From Nannocystis bainbridge (GTDB lineage: Bacteria; Myxococcota_A; Polyangia; Nannocystales; Nannocystaceae), in assembly GCF_028368995.1 (NCBI RefSeq), contig NZ_JAQNDL010000001.1:3968001-4032000 (forward strand): a DNA stretch of 64,000 nucleotides. The letters are read 5' to 3'. A program made the translations under genes and the position numbers. The notes under the pieces were generated by a model, which was given only the letters and a program-made list of their open reading frames with translations, did not search any database and was not told the origin of the DNA. How positions within the stretch are numbered: the first letter of the stretch is position 1; the number at the start of each line of letters is the position of its first letter. Shown piece by piece: positions 3 through 62,622 of the stretch.

Positions 3-1193
3 AACCTGTCCCTTGGTGCATGTCTCTCGATCCTCGCTGCCTGTCCCGCGAGCGGCGGTGAGACCACCGCCTCGACCGGCGAGCCGGCCACCACGACGAC
101 CACGTCCACCACCACCGCGGCGACCCTTGACGCCTCGACTGGCACCACCGCGCCGACCACCGACGCGCCGACTGGCACCACCACCGGCGCGCCTGTCGAC
201 CGCGAGCCGTTCAGCATTCAGGTGCTCGACAATGCCTGGATCACCGGCACCGACGGTTGGACCACCCAGCACCAGGACATCGCCTTCGACCTCGGCGCAG
301 CCCCCTTTTCAAAGGTCACGCTGATCGTCGATCTCGGCACCGACTGTTATCCGTGGGAAAATTGGCAGGCCAGCCCGCCGCCGCCGGGGCAGTCGTGGCC
401 GGCCTCGTGCGACGCGTTCGACCGGACCATGGGCTTCATCAGCGACCCGGGCGGCGACCCGGGCGACCCGCCCGGCTTCGAGCTGCTGCGCTCGATCACC
501 CCGTTTGGCGGCCCCGCTCACCTCGAGGCCGACATCACCGACTACGCCAACGCCCACCCTGGCGAGCACGTGCTGCGCTCGTACATCAACACCTGGCCTG
601 ACGGCGCCGGCAAGGTCAGCGGCTCGGCCGGCGGCTGGCACCTCAGCGTGCGCATCGAGGGCCAGCCCGGCCCGGCCCCGCGCGAGGTGCTCGCGGCCGT
701 CTCGCTGTTCGCCGGCGACGTCGGGGTCGACGGCGCGACCACCACGGTGCCGTTCAGCCTGCCCGCGGGCTTCAAGAAGGCCGAGCTCGTCTACACCGTC
801 AGCGGCCACGGCGGCGCGACCGACAACAGCGGCGGCTGCATCGGCCCCGCCGAGGAGTTCTGCAAGCGCAAGCACCACATCAGCCTCGACGGCGCCGTCG
901 TCACCTCGTTCGAGGCCTGGCGCACCGACTGCGGCGAGCTGTGCACGATCACCGACAATGCGCTCGGCGTCGGCCCGGCCAAGTTCTGCGCCGAGAACCC
1001 GTGCGGCGCGATCGCCTCGGTCCAGGCCGCGCGCGCCAACTGGTGCCCCGGCGACCTCGTCGCCCCGCTGCGCGGCCCCGTCACCTCGGCCCTCGGCGCC
1101 GGCCCGGACCACGAGTTCCAGTTCGCCATCGACAAGGTCAAGGAGGGCGGCAGCTGGACGGTGTCGGCGGCGATCTACGCTTACGGGCCGTGA
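3..1193 (+). CDS. PNGase F-related (peptide-N-glycosidase C-terminal domain) lipoprotein, 5' end outside window
   Basis: Frame is open from base 3 (..LSILAAC lipobox, then Thr-rich linker). It carries GHGG..AEEFC and RANWCPG motifs typical of PNGase F C-terminal-like domains. Confidence 0.7.
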   Translation, partial: NLSLGACLSILAACPASGGETTASTGEPATTTTTSTTTAATLDASTGTTAPTTDAPTGTTTGAPVDREPFSIQVLDNAWITGTDGWTTQHQDIAFDLGAAPFSKVTLIVDLGTDCYPWENWQASPPPPGQSWPASCDAFDRTMGFISDPGGDPGDPPGFELLRSITPFGGPAHLEADITDYANAHPGEHVLRSYINTWPDGAGKVSGSAGGWHLSVRIEGQPGPAPREVLAAVSLFAGDVGVDGATTTVPFSLPAGFKKAELVYTVSGHGGATDNSGGCIGPAEEFCKRKHHISLDGAVVTSFEAWRTDCGELCTITDNALGVGPAKFCAENPCGAIASVQAARANWCPGDLVAPLRGPVTSALGAGPDHEFQFAIDKVKEGGSWTVSAAIYAYGP

Positions 1194-1268
1194 GCGCGCG
1201 AGCGATGGGGCCGTGGGCGCGGCGCTCCGACGCGTGGCGAGTCAATCAAGTCTCGTGCGTGCCCAGCA

Positions 1269-1352
1269 TGTCCCGAAGAACATGCCTCATTCGACATGTC
1301 TCATCGAACATTATCGATCGGGCATATCCTTGAGAGCATGTCCGCTCGGACA
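1269..1352. repeat. Tandem array of six 14-bp TG..CA palindromic units
   Basis: TGTCCCGAAGAACA TGCCTCATTCGACA TGTCTCATCGAACA TTATCGATCGGGCA TATCCTTGAGAGCA TGTCCGCTCGGACA. CAT recurs at 1267, 1281, 1295, 1309, 1323, 1337 and 1351. Confidence 0.9.
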
Positions 1353-2252
1353 TCACGTGAACGGCGGCTCTGCCCGGCGGCGCAGGCGGGCCGCCTCGTC
1401 GCCGCGGCCGAGCGCCTCGAGGCCCTCGGCGAGGATCCGCGCGAACGGGCCGCGGAGGTCGCCGCGGCGGACGGGCAGGCGGTCGTACCAGCGCAGCGCC
1501 TCGGCCATGCCGCCCTCTGCCTGCGCCGGCGCGGCGCAAGCGGCACGTAGGGACAGCTTGGCCAGGCGGGCCACGCACAGCACCAGGTGGCTGGCGCTGT
1601 CGCCCCCGAGGGTCGCGTCGTCGAAGTTGTCGCCCTGCAGCAGCGGGAACACGCGGCGGACGAACGCGACGTAGCGGCCGAGGTTGCGCCCGGCGTCGGC
1701 CAGACAGGCGACGTGGGCCGCGAACTCCTCGTCGAGCAGGACCTCGAGGCAGGGTCGCTCGGGCCGGCGGCGCTTCCACACCTCGACGGCGAGCAGGCCG
1801 AGCAGGTCCTGGTCGGCCTCGGCGAGGGTCTGCGTCATGTACACGCGCAACGCCAGCTGCCACGCCGACGCGAACTCGGGCGCCTCGTCGAGGATCGCCA
1901 GGGTCCGCGGCAGGCGCAGCCCGCTGAGCCGATCGAGCCAGGCCAGCAGCGCGCGGTCGGGCAGCGCCGCGACCTCGCCGATGCGCAGGAAGCCGGGGCA
2001 GCGCAGCGCCCACACGCCGTCGTAGCGGTACTCCTCCTCGAGCTGCGCCGCGTAGGCGGGGATCTCCTGCTCGGCGGCGACGCTGGCGATGCTGCGCTCG
2101 CGCTCGTCGAATTCGGCGGCGCCGAACCACCGCCGCATGAGCGCCGTCTCGACCGCGACCGCGGCGCGAGCCCGGGCACGGATCCGGCTGCGCTCCACCG
2201 CTCGCACGGGTCGCGGCCGCTCCCGCGGGAGGCGCTGCGGAAACCTGGCCAT
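1353..2252 (-). CDS. hypothetical protein
   Basis: ORF with globular, helical-looking composition. Start is uncertain (ATG 2252 or 2138). Confidence 0.6.
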   Translation of the reverse strand: MARFPQRLPRERPRPVRAVERSRIRARARAAVAVETALMRRWFGAAEFDERERSIASVAAEQEIPAYAAQLEEEYRYDGVWALRCPGFLRIGEVAALPDRALLAWLDRLSGLRLPRTLAILDEAPEFASAWQLALRVYMTQTLAEADQDLLGLLAVEVWKRRRPERPCLEVLLDEEFAAHVACLADAGRNLGRYVAFVRRVFPLLQGDNFDDATLGGDSASHLVLCVARLAKLSLRAACAAPAQAEGGMAEALRWYDRLPVRRGDLRGPFARILAEGLEALGRGDEAARLRRRAEPPFT

Positions 2253-2512
2253 GACCGGTCTATGGGGCGGCCTCCGCGGCGCGGCAACGCGCACCGACAA
2301 GCGACGTGCGCAGTCCGACGTTCACGGGCCAAAGCGCGCCGAAAAGCGCCGCAGAAGGCCGCTGCGAACGTCGGTCGGCCCGCACGCCGCGACACCTCTC
2401 GTCGCTGTCACGCAGGCCACGGCCGTCGCGCTCGCAGGCGGTGCGGACGCCTGTCCATTCGCGCCGGGGCCTTGAGCGCCGGGGCCGCTTCGCGCAAGCT
2501 CGCAAGCAGATC

Positions 2513-5068
2513 ATGACGCCGTTCCACGCAGTGACCGCGGCCTTGATCGTCGTGGGCTCCGGGGTCCTGGCGCTGGGCGCGAAGCGGACGCTGGCGCTCC
2601 TTCGACTGCGTCAGGTCACCCCTCATGCCGGACCGTGGCGGGTCCTGCTCTCCCTGATCGTCGTCTGCATCGCCGCCTACATCGCCACCGCGGTCGTCGT
2701 CCTGCTCGGCCTGCAAGAGGCGGTGGTGGCGCTGACCGGCGTCATCTTCCTGGGCGGTGGGGTGTTCGTATACCTCGCCGCGGACGCCAGCTTCCGCACC
2801 ATGCAGGCGCTGGTGAAGTCGAGCATGACCCAGCGCCAGGTCGGCGACATGCTCGAGGCCCTCAGCCACGCCGTGCTGCTGGTCGACGACCGCGGCGTCG
2901 TCCGCACCGTCAACCGCAAGCTGTGCGAGATCACCGGCCTGCCCGCCAGCGCCCTGGTCGGCAAGTCGATCATGCAGGCGGTCGGGCTCGAGAACCCGTT
3001 CGCGACCTCGGCGGTCAAGAGCAGCATCGACATGCCGCACACCCACGAGCACGAGCTGCGCCGCCGCGACGGCGCGGTGGTGCCGGTGGCGGTGGCGATC
3101 GTGCCGGCGCACCGCGGGTTCGTGTGCGTGCTGACCGACATCCGCGAGGACCGCCTGCGCCGACGTCAGCTCGACGACGCGGTCCGGATCGCCGAGGAGA
3201 TCTTGCGCGCCCGCAACGAATTCATGGCGCTGGTGGCGGTCGAGCTGCGCGACCCGCTGGGCCAGCTGTCGCGGGCCTCTCGCGCCCTCGTCGACGCCCC
3301 GCCCGAGGCCGACGTCGCCGCCATGGCCCGCAAGATCGGCGTCGCCGGCGAACAGCTCGAGCGCGTCGCCCAGAGCCTGCTCGAGGTCGGTCGCCTCGGC
3401 GGCAGCGCCGAGGGGGCGCGGGTGTTCCAGCCGGCCGCGCTGCTGCGCGACGCCGCCGAGGCGCTGTCGGTCCAGGCCGGGCGCGCCGGGGTGATCGTGC
3501 GCCACTACGTCGAGCAGGGCGTGCCTTCGACCTTCTACGGGCGCGAGGCGCAGATCCGGCAGATCCTGGGCCTGCTCGGGCTCAACGCGATCGCGCGGGC
3601 CCCGGGCGGCGAGATCCGGATCGCCGTCGAACCTGTCCCCGGGGACAAATCATCGCACCAGCTGCTGTTCTCGGTCCGCGACACCGGCTATCCGCTGACC
3701 GATACCACCGCCGACGTCGAGTTCGACCCGCTGACCAGCGGCGCGCGCAGCCAGGGCGGCCGGCTCGACCTGGCGATCTGTCGCCTGCTGGTGCTCTCGC
3801 TCGGCGGGCGCATGTCGGCCGGCAACACCACCGGCAACACCGCGACCGTGTTCTTCACCGTGCTGGGCGGCGTCGCCCCCGGGTCGCAGCAGGCGGCGCT
3901 GGTCAACGCGCTCGGCGAGACCCAGGCCGTCGCGTCGCTGAGCGGCGGCGGGTGGAAGAACTCGTTCGAGGCCTCGGCGCGGCTGGCCCGGCTCGCCGTG
4001 CCCGACGCCGGCCCCGAGCCCGAGCGGCGCACCGGCTCGGTCCTGGTCGTCGACGACAGCCCGACCAGCCGCGAGCTGCTGGCTCACCAGCTGCGGCAGG
4101 CCGGCAACACCGTCGAGGTCGCGGGCACCGCCAGCGAGGCGCTCGACCTGGTGTGGCAGCAGGAGTTCGACGTCGTCCTGCTCGACGTCCTCCTGCCCGA
4201 CAGCGACGGCATCGCCGTGCTCGAGGAGCTGCGAGAAAAAGGCGCGCTCGAGCGGCTCAGCGTCTTGATGATCTCCGCGGTCGAGGAGACCTCGAGCGTG
4301 GCCGCCTGCATCGAGCGCGGGGCCGAGGACTTCTTGCCCAAGCCGGTCAGCCCGGCGCTCTTGCGGGCCCGCCTCGGCGCCTGCCTCGAGAAGAAGTTCC
4401 TGCGCGACAAGGCCCGCCACCACCTCATCCAGCTGGCGGCCGAGGGCCGGCGCGCCAACGACCTGCTGCGCGTGCTGCTGCCCGACCCGATCGCCGACGA
4501 GCTGCAGTCGACCGGCACGATCGCCCCGCGCCGGCTCGACAACGTCGCCGTGGTGTTCGCCGACATCGTCGGCTTCACCGCCTACTGCGACCGCCACAGC
4601 CCCGAAGAGGTGCTCATCAGCCTGCAGGACCTGTTCACCCGCTTCGAGCAGCTCGCGCTCGAGTTCGGCGTGCAGAAGATCAAGACGATCGGCGACTCCT
4701 TCATGGGCGCCGCCGGCCTGTTCAGCGCCGAGGACGAGCGCCCGGCCCTGCGCTGCGTCCAGTTCGGCCGCGCGATCCTGGCGGCCGGCGCCGACCTCGC
4801 GACCCACTGGAACCTGCGCATCGGCATCCACGTCGGCCCGGTCGTCGGCGGCGTGGTCGGCACGCGTCAGTACATCTTCGACATCTGGGGCGACACGGTG
4901 AACACCGCCCAGCGCATCGAACAAAACGCCCGCGTCGGTCAGGTCTGCATCAGCGCCGCGGCGCGGCGGCAGGTCGAACCCGACTACGAGACCGAGAGCA
5001 TCGGCCTCAGCGAGATCAAGGGCAAGGGCGAGGCCGAGATCTTCATCGTCGTCGGGGGCCCGAATTGA
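2513..5068 (+). CDS. Membrane PAS / degenerate His-kinase / REC / class III adenylate cyclase
   Basis: Three TM segments, PAS, HisKA-like AVELRDPL without His, degenerate HATPase, REC (VVDDS, LLDVLLPD, PKP), cyclase motifs FADIVGFT, KIKTIGD and FDIWGDTVNTAQR. Confidence 0.9.
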   Translation: MTPFHAVTAALIVVGSGVLALGAKRTLALLRLRQVTPHAGPWRVLLSLIVVCIAAYIATAVVVLLGLQEAVVALTGVIFLGGGVFVYLAADASFRTMQALVKSSMTQRQVGDMLEALSHAVLLVDDRGVVRTVNRKLCEITGLPASALVGKSIMQAVGLENPFATSAVKSSIDMPHTHEHELRRRDGAVVPVAVAIVPAHRGFVCVLTDIREDRLRRRQLDDAVRIAEEILRARNEFMALVAVELRDPLGQLSRASRALVDAPPEADVAAMARKIGVAGEQLERVAQSLLEVGRLGGSAEGARVFQPAALLRDAAEALSVQAGRAGVIVRHYVEQGVPSTFYGREAQIRQILGLLGLNAIARAPGGEIRIAVEPVPGDKSSHQLLFSVRDTGYPLTDTTADVEFDPLTSGARSQGGRLDLAICRLLVLSLGGRMSAGNTTGNTATVFFTVLGGVAPGSQQAALVNALGETQAVASLSGGGWKNSFEASARLARLAVPDAGPEPERRTGSVLVVDDSPTSRELLAHQLRQAGNTVEVAGTASEALDLVWQQEFDVVLLDVLLPDSDGIAVLEELREKGALERLSVLMISAVEETSSVAACIERGAEDFLPKPVSPALLRARLGACLEKKFLRDKARHHLIQLAAEGRRANDLLRVLLPDPIADELQSTGTIAPRRLDNVAVVFADIVGFTAYCDRHSPEEVLISLQDLFTRFEQLALEFGVQKIKTIGDSFMGAAGLFSAEDERPALRCVQFGRAILAAGADLATHWNLRIGIHVGPVVGGVVGTRQYIFDIWGDTVNTAQRIEQNARVGQVCISAAARRQVEPDYETESIGLSEIKGKGEAEIFIVVGGPN

Positions 5069-10594: not shown

Positions 10595-10664
10595 TGTCCC
10601 GATGAACATGCCCCTTCGAACATGCTCTTTATGGCATGCGCGAAAGAACATGCCCGTCAGGACA
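10595..10664. repeat. Tandem array of five 14-bp TG..CA units
   Basis: TGTCCCGATGAACA TGCCCCTTCGAACA TGCTCTTTATGGCA TGCGCGAAAGAACA TGCCCGTCAGGACA, followed by half unit TGTCTC and the stop at 10671. Confidence 0.9.
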
Positions 10665-16309: not shown

Positions 16310-17827
16310 TCACGGGGCGCGCTTGCGCCGGCCCGGGTCGAACCACACCGCCACCTCGATCCCGAGGTTGAGCTCGACCCCGCCGATGGCCGCCAGCGCC
16401 GGCTCCCCCGGGCGCGCCAGCAGCGGCTTGCGCGGCCCGCCTGCGCCTGGCTCCCCCGAGGCCCACAGCTCCGCGCGCGCCCCGGCGCGCACCGCCACGG
16501 CCGGGAGACGCAGCCAGAAGCCCGGCGACAGCCGCAGCCCGCCGCCGAGCAGCGGCCGCGACCCGCCGCGGATCACCGTCGCCTCGCCGCCTGCCAGGCC
16601 CCACCACTCGACCCCGACCAGCCCGACGATCGGCAGCTCGAACGCCCGCACCCGCACGCCGAAGCCCGCCCCCGCCGCCATCCGCACGCGCACCAGCGTG
16701 TGGCGATCGACCGGGGCCACCGTCGCCCGCACCTCGACCGCCGCGATCGCCCCGCGACGCCAGCGCAGGTCGAGCCCGAGCCCGAACATCGCGCCGCGCA
16801 CCCCCGCGAGCGGCCGGTCGAGCCCGAACGAGGCCCCGTCGTAGCGGACCAGGCCGAGCTCGAGCGCGGGCACCCGCGGCTTCGCAGGCGCGGGCAACCG
16901 CGGACAAAGCTGCACCTCGGGACATGTCCTATTAGAAATGTCCTTCGGGACAGGCGACTGCGGCGGTGGTGCGGCGGCGATCGCCGGCGGCACCGGCACG
17001 TCGCGCTGATCGGGGGCGACCGAGTCGTCCTCGATGGCGGCGATCAGCAGCGCCAGCGCGGCCGCCACCGGGCGCGCGGGCGGCTCGTCCTCGGTGTCGA
17101 CGACGCGGAAATAGGCCCGCCCGTCAGCGAGGATCAGCGCCACCTGCACCTGCGTCGGCGACGTCCGCCGCAGGTCGACGAACGCGCGCAGGCCGTCGCC
17201 CACGGGCAGCGCCTCGCCCTGCTGCGCCAGCGCCAGCGACGGCAAGCGCACCCGCAGCGCCCGCGCGACGTCGGCGAACACCAGCCCCTCGACGTGCACC
17301 AGCGCCCCGGCGATCGTCAGCGCCCGCACGCCGACCGGGCCTTCGCTCGCGCCCATCTGCACTGCTGCGGGAGGTCCCGTGCTCGCATCCCTCGGCGCTG
17401 CGTCAGGACTCGAGCTCGCGTCGCTTGGCGGCGAAGGCACGCTCGCTCCCGACATCGCTGGAGGCGACGTGGCCGTATGGCGCTTCGCCCCCCGATCGTC
17501 CCTCGGTGGCGAAGGCTCGCTCGCTCCCGGCGCCGCAGAAGGTGACGCGACTGCGTCACGCTTCGCCCCCTGTTCGTCCCTCGGTGGCGGAGCCACGCTC
17601 GCAGGCGACAGGGCCGCATCACGCTTCGCTCCCTGATCGTCCCTCGGTGACGAACGCTCGCTCGCTCCCGGCGCCGCGTCACGCTTCGCCGCCTGATCGT
17701 CCCTCGGTGGCGAAGGCTCGCTCGCTCCCGGCGCCGCGGACGACAGGGCCGCATCACGCTTCGCCGCCCCGCCAGGCGCGGCGGTCGGGCTCGTCAGCGC
17801 GAGCGCGAGCAGAGGAGCGAAGAGCAC
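16310..17827 (-). CDS. Exported protein with N-terminal repeats and C-terminal beta-barrel-like region
   Basis: Signal peptide, about five AKRDAA..ASEPSPPRDDQ repeats and amphipathic beta strands ending EVAVWF. Confidence 0.65.
   Translation of the reverse strand: MLFAPLLALALTSPTAAPGGAAKRDAALSSAAPGASEPSPPRDDQAAKRDAAPGASERSSPRDDQGAKRDAALSPASVAPPPRDEQGAKRDAVASPSAAPGASEPSPPRDDRGAKRHTATSPPAMSGASVPSPPSDASSSPDAAPRDASTGPPAAVQMGASEGPVGVRALTIAGALVHVEGLVFADVARALRVRLPSLALAQQGEALPVGDGLRAFVDLRRTSPTQVQVALILADGRAYFRVVDTEDEPPARPVAAALALLIAAIEDDSVAPDQRDVPVPPAIAAAPPPQSPVPKDISNRTCPEVQLCPRLPAPAKPRVPALELGLVRYDGASFGLDRPLAGVRGAMFGLGLDLRWRRGAIAAVEVRATVAPVDRHTLVRVRMAAGAGFGVRVRAFELPIVGLVGVEWWGLAGGEATVIRGGSRPLLGGGLRLSPGFWLRLPAVAVRAGARAELWASGEPGAGGPRKPLLARPGEPALAAIGGVELNLGIEVAVWFDPGRRKRAP
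16911..16952. repeat. Three phased 14-bp units (42 bp) inside a CDS linker
   Basis: TGCACCTCGGGACA TGTCCTATTAGAAA TGTCCTTCGGGACA. Confidence 0.8.
17440..17770. repeat. Imperfect 60-78 bp intragenic tandem repeats
   Basis: Recurring tcgtccctcggtggcgaaggctcgctcgctcccggcgccgc and tcacgcttcgc segments. Confidence 0.8.
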
Positions 17828-18138: not shown

Positions 18139-19398
18139 TCAGGGCTGGCCGAGGCAATCGGCGAGCTTCTGATCGCACACGGCAGGCTCGCCCCCTTGCT
18201 CGAGGCACCCCTGGTGCTGCTCGAAGCACTCGAACGGCGGCGGCGGCTCCGGCGGGCCCGCGCACAGCTCCCACTGCGCCTTGCACTCCTCCGGGGCGAT
18301 GCCCTCTTGCAAGCACAGCTCGAGCTCGAGGTCGCAACCATTCGGCGGCGGCGGCTCGCCGAGGCACTCCTGCAGCGCCCCCTCGCACTCCGACGGATCG
18401 ATCCCCTGCTCGAGGCACTGCTGGAAATGCCAGTGGCACTCGTCCGGCGCCGGCGGCTGGCCCAGGCACTCCTGCAATTGCGCCTCGCACTCGGCCGGAT
18501 CGATCCCCTGCTGCAGGCACCCCTCGAATTGCCACTTGCAGTCGTCCGGCGGCGGCGGCGGCGGCTCGCCGAGGCACTCTTGCAGCGCCCCCTCGCACTC
18601 CGACGGATCGATCCCCTGCTCGAGGCACTGCTGGAAATGCCAGTGGCACTCGTCCGGCGCCGGCGGCTGGCCCAGGCACTCCTGCAACTGCGCCTCGCAC
18701 TCGGCCGGATCGATCCCCTGCTGCAGGCACCCCTCGAATTGCCACTTGCAGCCGTCGGGCGGCGGCGGCGGCTCGCCGAGGCACTCTTGCAGCGCCCCCT
18801 CGCACTCCGACGGATCGATCCCCTGCTCGAGGCACTCCTGGAAATGCCAGTGGCACTCGTCCGGCGCCGGCGGCGGCTCGCCGACGCACTGCTGCCATTG
18901 CGCCTCGCACTCGCCCGGGTCGTTGCCCTGCTCGAGGCAGATCTCGAGCTGCAGCTTGCACGCGTCCTCCGCCGGCGGCGGGCACGGGTCCGGCGGGCAC
19001 AGCTGCTCGCAGACCTCGACCGGATGGCCCTGCTCGAGGCACTTCACCAGCTCGCCCTTGCAGTCGGGCGGCGGCTGAACGCACTGCTCGAACTCGGCCT
19101 TGCAGAGCGTCGGGTCGACGCCCGCCTCGAAGCAGAGCTGCAGCTGCCATTCGCAGTCCGGCGGCTCGGGCGCCGGCGGCGGCGCGCAGCCCTCGAGCAG
19201 CGGCGCGCACTCCTCGGCCGTGTGGCCCTGGTCGAGGCAGCCCACGTATTGCTGCTTGCAATCGTCGGGGGCCGGCTCGTCGTCCCCGTCTTTCTCCTCG
19301 AGGTCGACCTTCACGTCGCAGCCGGTGGGGACCAGCACGGTGAACACCGTGCACGAGAACAGGAGGCCGAGTCGGCGCAGCAGGGGCAGTGTAGTCAT
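18139..19398 (-). CDS. Lipoprotein with 11 C-x6-C-x9-C-x6-C repeats
   Basis: Signal ending PTGC, with repeats such as ECHWHFQQCLEQGIDPSECEGALQECLG separated by poly-Pro. Confidence 0.85.
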   Translation of the reverse strand: MTTLPLLRRLGLLFSCTVFTVLVPTGCDVKVDLEEKDGDDEPAPDDCKQQYVGCLDQGHTAEECAPLLEGCAPPPAPEPPDCEWQLQLCFEAGVDPTLCKAEFEQCVQPPPDCKGELVKCLEQGHPVEVCEQLCPPDPCPPPAEDACKLQLEICLEQGNDPGECEAQWQQCVGEPPPAPDECHWHFQECLEQGIDPSECEGALQECLGEPPPPPDGCKWQFEGCLQQGIDPAECEAQLQECLGQPPAPDECHWHFQQCLEQGIDPSECEGALQECLGEPPPPPPDDCKWQFEGCLQQGIDPAECEAQLQECLGQPPAPDECHWHFQQCLEQGIDPSECEGALQECLGEPPPPNGCDLELELCLQEGIAPEECKAQWELCAGPPEPPPPFECFEQHQGCLEQGGEPAVCDQKLADCLGQP

Positions 19399-19481
19399 TT
19401 CAACGTCCTTCTTGCGATGCGTTCGCACGGTGAGTGGCCCGGCCCGGGCCGCGATTACAGCCGACCCTCACGAATTGTGAT

Positions 19482-56591: not shown

Positions 56592-56633
56592 TGTCTCTCG
56601 CGACATGTCCTCCATGACATGTCGTGATGGACA
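56592..56633. repeat. Three perfect TGTC-N6-GACA units filling a convergent gap
   Basis: TGTCTCTCGCGACA TGTCCTCCATGACA TGTCGTGATGGACA. Confidence 0.9.
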
Positions 56634-60710: not shown

Positions 60711-60760
60711 GGTGGCGCCCACGCTATCGCAGCCGCCCTGGCCCAGCAAGGCGCGCCCGC

Positions 60761-60906
60761 GCGCGCCCGTCCGCGCGCCTCGCAAGCACCTGTCTCTCGG
60801 GACATCTCATCGCCACGCCGATCCTCCGCCGGGGGACAGGCGCGCGCGGGCGCGCCCGTCCGCCCCTCGAATCAACCTGTCTCTCGGGACATCTCATTGC
60901 CACGCC
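60761..60906. repeat. Imperfect ~58-bp direct repeat, each copy containing TGTCTCTCGGGACA
   Basis: Copies at 60761-60819 and 60850-60906. Confidence 0.8.
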
Positions 60907-60945
60907 CATCCCCCTTCCGCGCCCGCCCTCGCGTACGATGCCCGG

Positions 60946-62622
60946 GTGCGCCGCCGCAGCTTCCTCGCCGGGACCGCCGCGCTCGCGTGCGGTCGGCCGC
61001 GCAGGGTCGAGCCTGGCTTCGGCGAGACGCGCGACACCGTCGCCGCCCTGCTCGACGCCTGGCGCGAGAAGATGCCCGTCGTCGGCCTCAGCATCGCCCT
61101 CGTCGATCGCGGCGAGCTCGCCTGGGCCACCGGCTTCGGCATGGCCGACCGCGAGGCGCGGCAGCCTGCCACCGCCGACACCGTCTACGCGATCGGCTCG
61201 CTCACCAAGATCTACACCGCCCTCGCGGCCGTGCGCGCCGCGCAGGCCGGCCGGCTCGACCTCGAGGCCCCGCTGCAGCGCCACCTCCCGCAGTTGCGCG
61301 CGCTCGGCAGCGACGCCATCCGCTTGCGTCAGCTCCTCTGTCACCGCTCCGGCCTCGTCTCCGACTGGCACCGCGGCAGCCTCGGCGCGCGCCCGCCCGA
61401 CTGGCGACGCGTCGCCGACGAGGTCGCCGAGGAGCCCCTGCTCGCCGCGCCCGACAGCTGGTACGCCTACTCCAACGTCGGCTACACCCTCATGGGACAT
61501 GTCCTCGACGACATGTCCGATAAACCATATCAAGAGCACGTCCTCGACGTCGCCCGCCTCGCGCTCGGCGGCTCCGGCCTGGGCTTCGACCCGCCCCCCG
61601 GCATGGCCGCCAGCTACTGCGCCGGCCAGCGCGAGCACGAGCCGCGCCTGCGCCTGCAGCCCGCCGCCGGCATGTTCGGCAGCGTCCTCGATCTCGTCCC
61701 GCTGCTGCGCTGGCTGCTCGCCGGTGAGGGCGCCGCCGCGGCCATGCTCACCCCGCAGTCGGCCGGCCCGCTCGATTTCGACGAGCGCTGGGGCCTCGGC
61801 CTCGCCCTGCAGCACGTCGGCCTCGCCCACGCCGGCCGCGTCGCCTGGCACACCGGCCGCACCTTCGGCCACCGCGCCGCCCTGTTCGCCCTGCCCGATC
61901 GCGGCCTCGGCGTCGCCGTGCTCGCCAACTTCCGCGAGGCCGGCGGCGTCGAGGACCTCGCCGCCTTCGCCCTCCAGACCGCCCTGCTCGAGCGCGACGG
62001 CCTCGACCTCCCGCCCAGCGCCGGCGACGCCGAAGCCCGCCCGCGCGCCCCCTTCGACCCCGCCGCGCTGCAGGCCCACGTCGGCCGCTACGCCCACGAG
62101 TTCGACGTCGTCCGCCTCGCCGTCGAGCGCGGCGGCCTGGTCTCGCGCGCCGAGATCGGCAAGACCGCGCTGATCCCCGCGGCGGGCGGCGGCTTCCACA
62201 GCGCCGACAACCCCGACGCTCACGTCACCATCGCCGAGCGCGCCGGCCACCACGTCGTCACCAGCACCGTGCGCGGCGTCGAGACCCGGATCGGTGTGCG
62301 CTGTCCCTTCGAACATGTCCCCGAGGACTGGCTCCGCCGCGTCGGCCGCTACACCGTCGACGCCGGCCCCGACGAGGTCGTCGCCTTCAAGGCCGCCCAC
62401 CTCACCGCCGTCGAGGGCGGCCTCGAGCTCCGCCTCGAGCTGCCGCAAGCGTTCGCCACCAGCTCGACCCTGGCCCGCTACGCGCTCATCGTCACCGGCC
62501 CACACGAGGCCCGGACCTTCGGTGTCGGCCGCGGCAAGGGCCAGCGCGTCGCGGCCTTCGACGGCCCCGAGGGCCCCGAGCTGGCATGGGCCGGCTACCG
62601 CCTGCTCCGCAGCGACGCCTGA
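60946..62622 (+). CDS. Serine hydrolase (beta-lactamase class C-like), Tat lipoprotein
   Basis: RRRSFL..ALAC, SxxK (SLTK), YSN and HTG. Confidence 0.88.
   Translation: MRRRSFLAGTAALACGRPRRVEPGFGETRDTVAALLDAWREKMPVVGLSIALVDRGELAWATGFGMADREARQPATADTVYAIGSLTKIYTALAAVRAAQAGRLDLEAPLQRHLPQLRALGSDAIRLRQLLCHRSGLVSDWHRGSLGARPPDWRRVADEVAEEPLLAAPDSWYAYSNVGYTLMGHVLDDMSDKPYQEHVLDVARLALGGSGLGFDPPPGMAASYCAGQREHEPRLRLQPAAGMFGSVLDLVPLLRWLLAGEGAAAAMLTPQSAGPLDFDERWGLGLALQHVGLAHAGRVAWHTGRTFGHRAALFALPDRGLGVAVLANFREAGGVEDLAAFALQTALLERDGLDLPPSAGDAEARPRAPFDPAALQAHVGRYAHEFDVVRLAVERGGLVSRAEIGKTALIPAAGGGFHSADNPDAHVTIAERAGHHVVTSTVRGVETRIGVRCPFEHVPEDWLRRVGRYTVDAGPDEVVAFKAAHLTAVEGGLELRLELPQAFATSSTLARYALIVTGPHEARTFGVGRGKGQRVAAFDGPEGPELAWAGYRLLRSDA

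Follow-up and report, generated by a model that had tools for sequence, protein, structure and literature searches.

The window analysed here, a 64-kb stretch of Nannocystis bainbridge DNA, contains near its beginning two convergent genes whose stop codons enclose a short and strictly periodic array. The plus-strand gene (222..1193, stop codon at 1191-1193) encodes a protein with a Peptide-N-glycosidase F C-terminal domain (PF09113). Its minus-strand neighbour (1353..2252, within an ORF spanning 1353..2300) ends with the stop codon at 1353-1355, TCA being the reverse complement of a stop. A Pfam search with the product of this gene at 1353..2252 matched no family. Orthologues with 87-94% identity are present in five other genomes of the genus, and the array therefore truly lies flush with a genuine stop codon, as had been proposed in an earlier note based on the letters of this DNA. 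The distance between gene and array is 0 nt at this end and 75 nt at the end of the plus-strand gene.

Seven CAT trinucleotides start at positions 1267, 1281, 1295, 1309, 1323, 1337 and 1351, every spacing being exactly 14 bp, and the 84 bases at 1269-1352 consist of six TG...CA units with six different interiors; both observations of the earlier note were thus reproduced. The periodicity, whose significance the note had left to simulation, stood up well: the 64-kb window contains a single instance of seven CAT spaced by 14 bp, and none of 100 dinucleotide-preserving shuffles produced the pattern. TRF picks up no more than a weak 2.4-copy repeat (1278-1311), which is consistent with divergent units. 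The GC content of the array is approximately 53%, compared with 70-80% in its surroundings.

The units can be described as variants of a palindromic box, TGTCC-N4-GGACA. Matches at the ten arm positions number nine in box 1 (1269..1282), seven in box 2 (1283..1296), eight in box 3 (1297..1310), six in box 4 (1311..1324; the most decayed one, which has kept its CA end and its length), seven in box 5 (1325..1338) and ten in box 6 (1339..1352), a perfect box adjoining the stop codon of the minus-strand gene. The out-of-register background has its mode at 2-3 matches. Each joint between the CA of one box and the TG of the next forms a CATG, one per 14 bp, and the whole phased run (1267..1353) comprises the seven CAT, i.e. 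six boxes with CA before the first and T after the last. Taking into account these scores, the 1269-1352 stretch is one typical, partly decayed member of a genus-wide family of box arrays, with good boxes at both of its ends.

Further members of the family are present in the same window. Another array (10595..10664) has boxes at 10595, 10609 and 10651 in one register, with weaker units between them; three abutting boxes are found at 16911..16952, another three at 56592..56633 (which fold into a single 20-bp hairpin of -33.2 kcal/mol, z -7.05) and two at 62302..62329. A solitary perfect box (3634..3647) is located within the coding sequence of a PAS/kinase/receiver/cyclase gene. An Rfam search over positions 900-2700, with E values up to 10, gave nothing but one chance snoRNA match inside a gene.

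A family of 14-bp boxes

The 11.05-Mb assembly (G000, 90.5% complete) was scanned for CATG-like anchors phased at 14 bp. This identified 804 arrays with at least four units, 605 of which have at least five. Their unit logo reads GGR-CATG-YCC plus four free positions; the CATG-phased arrays and the TGTCC-N4-GGACA boxes are one element seen in two frames, since abutting boxes give joints of CA and TG. The array detector was anchored on CATG, and CATG conservation within arrays is therefore partly built in. The cross-species rates given below are free of this bias, as they rely on boxes picked by arm score in one genome.

Perfect boxes occur 1987 times, while about 9.5 would be expected from base composition, and control patterns with N3, N5 or N6 spacers or with permuted arms occur only 2-16 times each (N3, 16; N5, 5). 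Boxes matching at nine of the ten arm positions number 4258 genome-wide; on a single 0.72-Mb contig (C5) there are 261 of them, as opposed to 17 in a Markov-1 simulation. Successive good boxes follow one another at distances of 14 (485 cases), 28 (274), 42 (165) and 56 bp (58); 27 and 29 bp were recorded in 24 and 6 cases, respectively, and 13 and 15 bp in none. Units lying between good boxes that are 28 or 42 bp apart mostly score 6-8 out of 10, with TG and CA usually preserved at their ends. An in-register neighbour accompanies 672 of the 1987 perfect boxes, and the remaining 1315 are solitary.

Single TGTCC arms occur 12351 times, a number not far from the roughly 10,000 predicted from base composition, and 4205 of them have a partner arm at the N4 distance. 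Orphan arms are therefore not over-represented and the inverted pair with its 4-nt spacer is the unit; the idea that a single arm serves as a word resembling an uptake sequence was rejected on the same grounds. Box density is roughly even across all five contigs, and a bias towards particular chromosomal domains was accordingly discarded.

Taxonomic distribution

A search for the double-box pattern was positive for 9 of 10 further genomes from the genus and for 0 of 30 genomes representing 30 other genera, 14 of them from the same family. The only genome of the genus without a match is 64% complete. In a collection holding one genome per species, 49 loci matched: 32 in Nannocystis, 14 in Mesorhizobium and three as single hits in unrelated MAGs. 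The Mesorhizobium matches were rejected as family members; the one locus inspected (L046) is something else, namely a long perfect palindrome with the pattern inside it. A 200-kb sample of one genome from another genus of the same family (G024), small as it is, yielded no over-represented palindrome with 5-nt arms and no phased 4-mer array. The box family is thus restricted to one genus, Nannocystis. Neither the motif nor intergenic repeats of Nannocystis were found described in the full-text literature outside subscription journals. Sequencing runs returned by a search were all metagenomes, with 0.06-0.09 of the query words, and no RNA run was among them.

Position relative to genes

Genes were predicted with a simple GC3-based ORF caller (7770 ORFs), in which stop positions are exact for a given frame and start positions are not. 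Arrays of at least five units lie predominantly between convergent genes (356 of 604); tandem gaps hold 108 and 110 of them, according to orientation, and divergent gaps only 30, although each kind of gap constitutes approximately a quarter of the total (27% is the value for convergent and for divergent gaps). In tandem gaps the arrays keep close to the upstream gene, at a median of 19-26 nt behind its stop codon, with over 300 nt left to the next gene; the median offset of 19 nt goes with gaps of a median length of 525 nt.

A box is present within 300 nt after the stop codon in 2311 of 7769 genes, and within 30 nt in 1084. Among these 2311 genes (first box between -14 and 300 nt from the stop), the offset of the first box peaks at -3 (56 cases), where the stop codon itself supplies the first letters of the box, and at +2 (77 cases). 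Offset 0, the arrangement at the 1353 stop, occurs in 10 cases, so the flush contact that had drawn attention to this array falls within the normal range and is not special. Overlap by more than half with a predicted ORF was recorded for 73 of the 605 arrays, probably as a result of over-long predicted 5' ends.

Genes for tRNA rarely carry the element: a box lies within 150 nt downstream in 9 of 102 cases (two of the nine look like part of a neighbouring tRNA gene) and upstream in three. Some tRNA genes, e.g. tRNA-Met, are followed by an ordinary hairpin with a T-run instead. Boxes and hairpin-plus-T-run sites, the latter identified with a crude detector, did not appear to be complementary in their distribution (13% against 7.3% in the tandem context).

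The boxes are not confined to gaps. Gene cores contain 621 perfect boxes, compared with 12-20 in five synonymous-codon shuffles, and 474 of the intragenic perfect boxes have coding-type GC3 on both flanks. The box is thus selected inside genes, even at synonymous sites.

Conservation among related species

The gene pair that borders the array is adjacent in six genomes, and in all six the gap contains a phased array; in five further, less complete genomes of the genus, the gene at this locus was not found. As read from the alignment, the arrays of G005, G010 and G007 correspond unit by unit without indels, their arms being nearly identical (shared deviant arms included) and their spacers different. 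Those of G000, G001 and G003 show no unit-by-unit alignment with the former three. The orthologous arrays apparently contain five or six units. The length of the gap in the six genomes is 159, 87, 76, 76, 72 and 125 bp, and the species also differ in how the array is phased with respect to the flanking gene. The earlier note had asked whether the orthologous gap changes in steps of 14 bp. It does not: the differences in length are not multiples of 14.

Approximately 237 kb of conserved synteny was available for comparison at the species level (the genomes are about 5-10% diverged in aligned DNA), the identity to G005 being 95.2% for G007, 92.6% for G010, 90.9% for G001 and 89.7% for G000. In the same order, changes per site in intergenic boxes amounted to 0.030, 0.084, 0.068 and 0.074 in the arms and to 0.148, 0.180, 0.231 and 0.264 in the spacers; the values for third codon positions were 0.059, 0.099, 0.124 and 0.142. 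The arms thus change 2-5 times less than the 4-nt spacers, and they are clearly under purifying selection relative to both the spacers and the third codon positions. The lowest rates are those of the outer G and C (0.00 and 0.02 in the comparison with G000; 0.14-0.28 for the interior). Together with the spacings of 14, 28, 42 and 56 bp, the absence of 13 and 15 bp and the nearly random interiors, this bears out the suggestion that phase and unit ends are what is conserved.

There is also turnover between species. An alignment without indel in the other genomes was obtained for only 35-54 of the 85 intergenic boxes of G005, and pairwise listing of gaps revealed arrays that are present in one species and absent from the orthologous gap of another. 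For 43 chains of at least two abutting boxes in G005, 132 alignable comparisons were obtained, with a further 7-14 chains per genome failing to align at all. There was no net change of length in 112 comparisons and a change in 20. Exact multiples of 14 are absent from these 20 changes, although four of them come within 1 of 14, where alignment slop is possible. Small indels of other lengths are also present inside the arrays of relatives.

Origin of the arrays

If the arrays had arisen by plain slippage, neighbouring units should be near-identical, and on this basis the earlier note had excluded slippage. For the bulk of the arrays its argument is sustained, since the mean spacer identity is nearly random (0.32 for neighbours and 0.27 for random pairs). 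As a general exclusion it goes too far: neighbouring units are identical 14-mers in 20 of 2397 cases (compared with 0.018% of random pairs), and three consecutive units of one array recur as a 42-bp block. A common spacer is shared by 94 of the 2397 neighbouring pairs (3.9%, as against 1.1% of random pairs), and mirror-complementary spacers make up 2.2-3.3%, compared with 1.1% at random. Duplication of whole units therefore does occur, and most arrays are without a trace of it.

The exact register may have its origin in such events: an array would probably start by duplication of whole boxes, and each box would afterwards be selected for its arms and for the length of its 4-nt spacer, leaving almost no neutral place for an indel. 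If nearly every indel strikes a constrained position, the register can be kept without stepwise addition of units. Stepwise addition of units with TG...CA ends, as put forward in the earlier note, is unsupported, given that the length changes are not multiples of 14 (0 of 20) and that no transposase of the RAYT type was found; the variable phase at the locus points in the same direction. The search for a Y1/RAYT transposase (PF01797) gave 0 matches in G000 (90.5% complete) and was positive in 6 of 14 control genomes.

Folding and strand asymmetry

The six-unit array folds as one long hairpin on either strand (plus, -38.7 kcal/mol, z -2.53; minus, -46.8 kcal/mol, z -3.50). For 250 arrays sampled at random from the 605, the mean folding energy was -29.5 kcal/mol, compared with -28.8 kcal/mol after permutation of the spacers. 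This effect is tiny, and the idea that the spacers are arranged to complete a perfect long hairpin was rejected.

Compensatory covariation of paired positions was not detected at the central stem pair of the arrays. At stem position 3, Watson-Crick pairs have a frequency of 0.416 (0.404 expected) and C.A is found in 583 of 3002 boxes; the counts give odds ratios of approximately 1.2 for position 3 and approximately 1.7 for positions 4 and 5. The flanks of the 1315 solitary perfect boxes prefer C/A and G/T, again without covariation (0.487 vs 0.456), and a solitary box can form a stem of only 5 bp. No enrichment of T was observed after the boxes on the sense strand, so they do not have the form of a canonical hairpin followed by a U-tract.

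Read on the sense strand, the 163 arrays in the tandem context contain 433 G.U and 286 A.C oppositions; convergent gaps read on the G-rich strand give a similar picture (818 and 492). When the tandem arrays are divided by strand, G.U exceeds A.C where the sense strand is G-rich (276 vs 102, ratio 2.71) and falls below it where the sense strand is C-rich (157 vs 184, ratio 0.85). Most of the asymmetry, then, follows the replication strand. In the balanced strata (81 and 82 arrays) the sense strand retains an effect of about 1.5-fold (z ~5), and the background downstream of stop codons has no such skew (G/C 0.957, T/A 1.05). As the asymmetry is mostly linked to replication, a mutation bias linked to transcription could mimic this residual effect.

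Discussion

We tentatively favour the interpretation that the array family is a two-way element of gene ends which acts as an RNA hairpin and is recognised by a factor specific for its sequence. The arms are all complementary to one another, and transcripts from both genes can therefore form a long imperfect hairpin: a transcript entering the array from either gene would fold its 3' end in this way, and the hairpin may stop the polymerase or block 3' exonucleases. Recognition of the box would probably depend on a factor that reads its sequence and not on mere hairpin formation, as suggested by three features taken together, i.e. conservation of the arms as sequence without covariation, the fixed spacer length and intragenic selection. 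The position at gene ends, the rarity in promoter gaps, the strand symmetry, the strong folding and the residual G.U excess on the sense strand support action at the RNA level; the lack of covariation, the spacers that are not arranged to pair, the 5-bp stem of solitary boxes, the missing T-run and the small number of boxes at tRNA ends count against it. The 621 intragenic perfect boxes are hard to explain for a terminator and argue for a reader of the sequence itself. Such a reader could also act on duplex DNA, in line with the cooperative protein binding considered in the earlier note; we regard this as the chief alternative, though as less likely than the RNA-level reading: a dimeric, two-fold symmetric protein would occupy each 14-bp box, with dimers side by side about 4/3 of a helical turn apart, and the arrays at convergent gene ends would hinder read-through as a roadblock, or act on supercoils as a barrier or handle, the solitary sites serving the same protein. 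The two-fold symmetry of the motif agrees with this, as does the combination of one spacer length (N4, 1987; N3, 16; N5, 5) with many spacer sequences; half-sites vary independently, flank preferences are symmetric without covariation, orphan arms are not in excess (the pair being the unit), conservation is maximal at the outer G and C, intragenic boxes far outnumber those in synonymous shuffles (621 vs 12-20), and the register is exact, with 0 cases at 13 or 15 bp. For the lack of covariation in stem and flanks, the spacers not arranged to pair, the missing T-run, the short stem of solitary boxes and the intragenic selection, a dimeric DNA-binding protein is indeed the best fit. However, there is no candidate for this protein, the arrays are rare in divergent gaps, i.e. 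in promoters, the usual place of operators (30 of 604, against a baseline of 27%), the residual 1.5-fold G.U excess on the sense strand is left unexplained, and nothing would require a protein to bind 0-30 nt behind stop codons.

It is improbable, in our opinion, that the boxes are a selfish or hitch-hiking repeat comparable to REP/BIME, copied by an enzyme that recognises hairpins or by gene conversion, without function and tolerated behind genes, where it does least harm. Thousands of copies in one genus, their turnover between species (35-54 of the 85 G005 boxes align without indel, and there are arrays that one species has and another lacks) and occasional identical neighbours (20 of 2397) are what such a repeat would produce. 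Nevertheless, no Y1/RAYT gene (PF01797) was found in G000, purifying selection acts on the arms when they are compared with spacers and third codon positions, the insertion of 14 bp would break a reading frame and yet 621 perfect boxes reside in gene cores, and the tight offset from the stop codon in long tandem gaps (a median of 19 nt in 525 nt) exceeds what mere permissiveness would give. Growth of the arrays at one end by 14-bp units with TG...CA ends is very improbable. It would account for units that start with TG and end with CA, for the exact register and for orthologous arrays of apparently five or six units at the locus; it is contradicted by the length changes (no exact multiple of 14 among 20, four being within 1), by a phasing with respect to the flanking gene that differs from species to species and by small non-14 indels inside the arrays of relatives, and a candidate transposase was not found. 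Chance periodicity, or a plain slippage minisatellite without selection, is hardly credible: the weak 14-bp repeat reported by TRF and the few arrays with identical neighbours are outweighed by the failure of all 100 shuffles to match the pattern, by the 605 arrays with one common unit and by neighbouring spacers that are nearly random (0.32 vs 0.27) while the arms are conserved across species.

A bolder version of the DNA-level interpretation, which we regard as unlikely, would be that a dedicated dimeric protein reads the box on duplex DNA at about 6000 sites and polymerises on about 600 arrays behind stop codons, forming barriers that end convergent transcription or trap supercoils driven by transcription. 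To our knowledge, protein-mediated, sequence-specified termination or insulation on such a scale has not been described in bacteria.

Several known systems resemble the boxes in part. Ribbon-helix-helix proteins bind arrays of short abutting units (MetJ met-boxes, omega heptads, ParR iterons) cooperatively, in exact register and with variable unit number, at promoters or plasmid centromeres and at few places per replicon; a protein array on the boxes would be expected to work in this manner. The Nannocystis arrays share the abutting register, but there are approximately 600 of them, located at gene ends and rare in divergent gaps; with 30 of 604 in such gaps, compared with the 27% baseline, they do not have the promoter location of cooperative-repressor operators.

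REP/BIME elements of enterobacteria and pseudomonads are short lineage-specific palindromes, present in hundreds to thousands of copies behind genes or between convergent genes and often clustered, for which protection of mRNA 3' ends, attenuation of read-through and binding of gyrase and other proteins have been proposed. REPs are about 35 nt long, extragenic and linked to RAYT genes, and their orientation alternates within BIMEs, where defined linkers join them. The Nannocystis boxes, in contrast, are self-symmetric 14-nt units that abut without a linker; no RAYT was found (0 matches), they are not strictly extragenic (621 in gene cores) and there is no alternation of orientation with linkers. 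Bidirectional intrinsic terminators use one symmetric hairpin for both convergent units, with a GC-rich stem between A- and T-runs; the boxes are likewise symmetric, but have no T-run and carry one fixed arm sequence. DNA uptake sequences (Neisseria, Pasteurellaceae) are short lineage-specific words in thousands of copies, in and between genes, often placed in inverted repeats at gene ends. These are non-palindromic single words without exact-register arrays, whereas in Nannocystis only the inverted pair with the N4 spacer is over-represented. A slippage minisatellite would be recognised by near-identical neighbours; the six interiors described here differ, and identical neighbours are limited to 20 of 2397 pairs.

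How gene ends are marked in GC-rich bacteria that possess few canonical terminators is a long-standing question, also raised by TRIT, the closest analogue of the Nannocystis element as far as the description of TRIT allows comparison. TRIT ('Tuberculosis Rho-independent terminator') is a palindromic motif reported from Mycobacterium only, with 147 copies in M. tuberculosis; it is tightly tied to stop codons (centred at about -8) and mostly bidirectional, and its sequence conservation led the authors to consider that a further motif-binding factor may read it (Gardner et al. 2011, PMC3152330). Both elements, TRIT according to this description, are genus-restricted, palindromic, bidirectional and located at stop codons. 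They differ in number (147 copies, compared with 1987 perfect and 4258 nine-of-ten boxes in Nannocystis) and in structure, TRIT being described as a single well-conserved stem-loop and the Nannocystis element being a 14-nt box with a 5-bp stem, exact-register arrays and offset peaks at -3 and +2. As described, the TRIT sequence is unrelated to the box, and the box is in addition selected inside genes.

The box family joins the lineage-specific palindromes of gene ends, among which it is set apart by its very short unit, its exact-register arrays, its copy number and its selection within genes. One genus possesses a system far larger and simpler than TRIT, with about 6000 box copies and about 600 exact-register arrays, which makes the questions of RNA versus DNA and of the reader directly testable. 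If action at the RNA level, our preferred reading, is correct, the array would offer myxobacterial engineering a compact part that works in both directions as a terminator or stabiliser. If the reader is instead a DNA-binding protein, the boxes would represent a new kind of boundary between bacterial transcription units.

Longest array and pairing of adjacent arms

The longest array of the 14-bp interrupted palindrome TGTCC-N4-GGACA (the box) lies on contig C3 of the N. bainbridge genome (C3:1237902), where it occupies a tandem gap; the gene downstream of it is on the plus strand. The array comprises 21 phased units, and the exact CATG is found in 16. Most units have kept the TG and CA ends alone and are AT-richer than the genome. 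Across the genome, in arrays of at least five units, the two arms that meet at a CA|TG joint show an anti-correlation between their R/Y positions: the combinations A..C and G..T are more common than expected under independence, and A..T and G..C are rarer. Watson-Crick combinations account for 0.338 of the joints, compared with an expected 0.401 (n=3607), which indicates that fully palindromic hexamers around CATG are disfavoured.

Boxes within longer repeats

Longer duplicated segments also carry boxes along. A tandem duplication with a unit of 87 bp (window positions 60749-60911; 1.9 copies, 88% matches) contains in each copy a box matching at 9 of the 10 arm positions (at 60791 and 60878). 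The flanks of these two boxes are identical, and boxes therefore also move within longer duplicated segments.

Approximately 11 kb upstream of the window, at C1:3956672-3956880, we also observed a direct repeat with a period of ~43 bp and embedded boxes, in which a box together with ~29 nt of spacer occurs four times in nearly identical form. The orthologous gap of another genome of the genus (G005) likewise contains several boxes, at a different spacing.

Other sequence features

A large tandem repeat at window positions 18343-18981 (periods of 51, 102-105 and 210 bp, with matches of up to 94%) is unrelated to the box family. It falls inside a predicted minus-strand ORF (18139-19428), which probably encodes a repeat-domain protein. 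The minus-strand gene at 1353..2252, whose stop codon adjoins the six-box array 1269..1352, has an orthologue in the related genome G007 (loci L006/L007) that matches in two pieces, query 1-244 and query 216-296, which overlap. These lie in different frames, suggesting that G007 has either a frameshift or an assembly error here.

The double-box pattern was also matched by Mesorhizobium-titled loci, L046 and thirteen others, and the sequence of L046 alone was examined. This locus was rejected as a member of the family: the pattern sits by coincidence in a long perfect palindrome with CATG at its centre, which the locus carries twice (90-140 and 160-205), 67 bp apart.

Terminators and strand bias of arm variants

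Directly 3' of both tRNA-Met (C1:20972) and tRNA-Val (C1:4432153) there is an ordinary GC-rich hairpin followed by a T-run. Judging from these predicted structures, canonical intrinsic terminators are used by this organism alongside the box family.

Mismatched arm pairs of the G.T and A.C types strongly track the replication-associated GC skew genome-wide. On the G-rich strand of convergent gaps they number 818 and 492, respectively, a bias exceeding that suggested by the base skew (about 0.06-0.1). Such a bias could be of mutational origin, or it could point to a role of the hairpin on the strand exposed as single-stranded DNA when the chromosome replicates.
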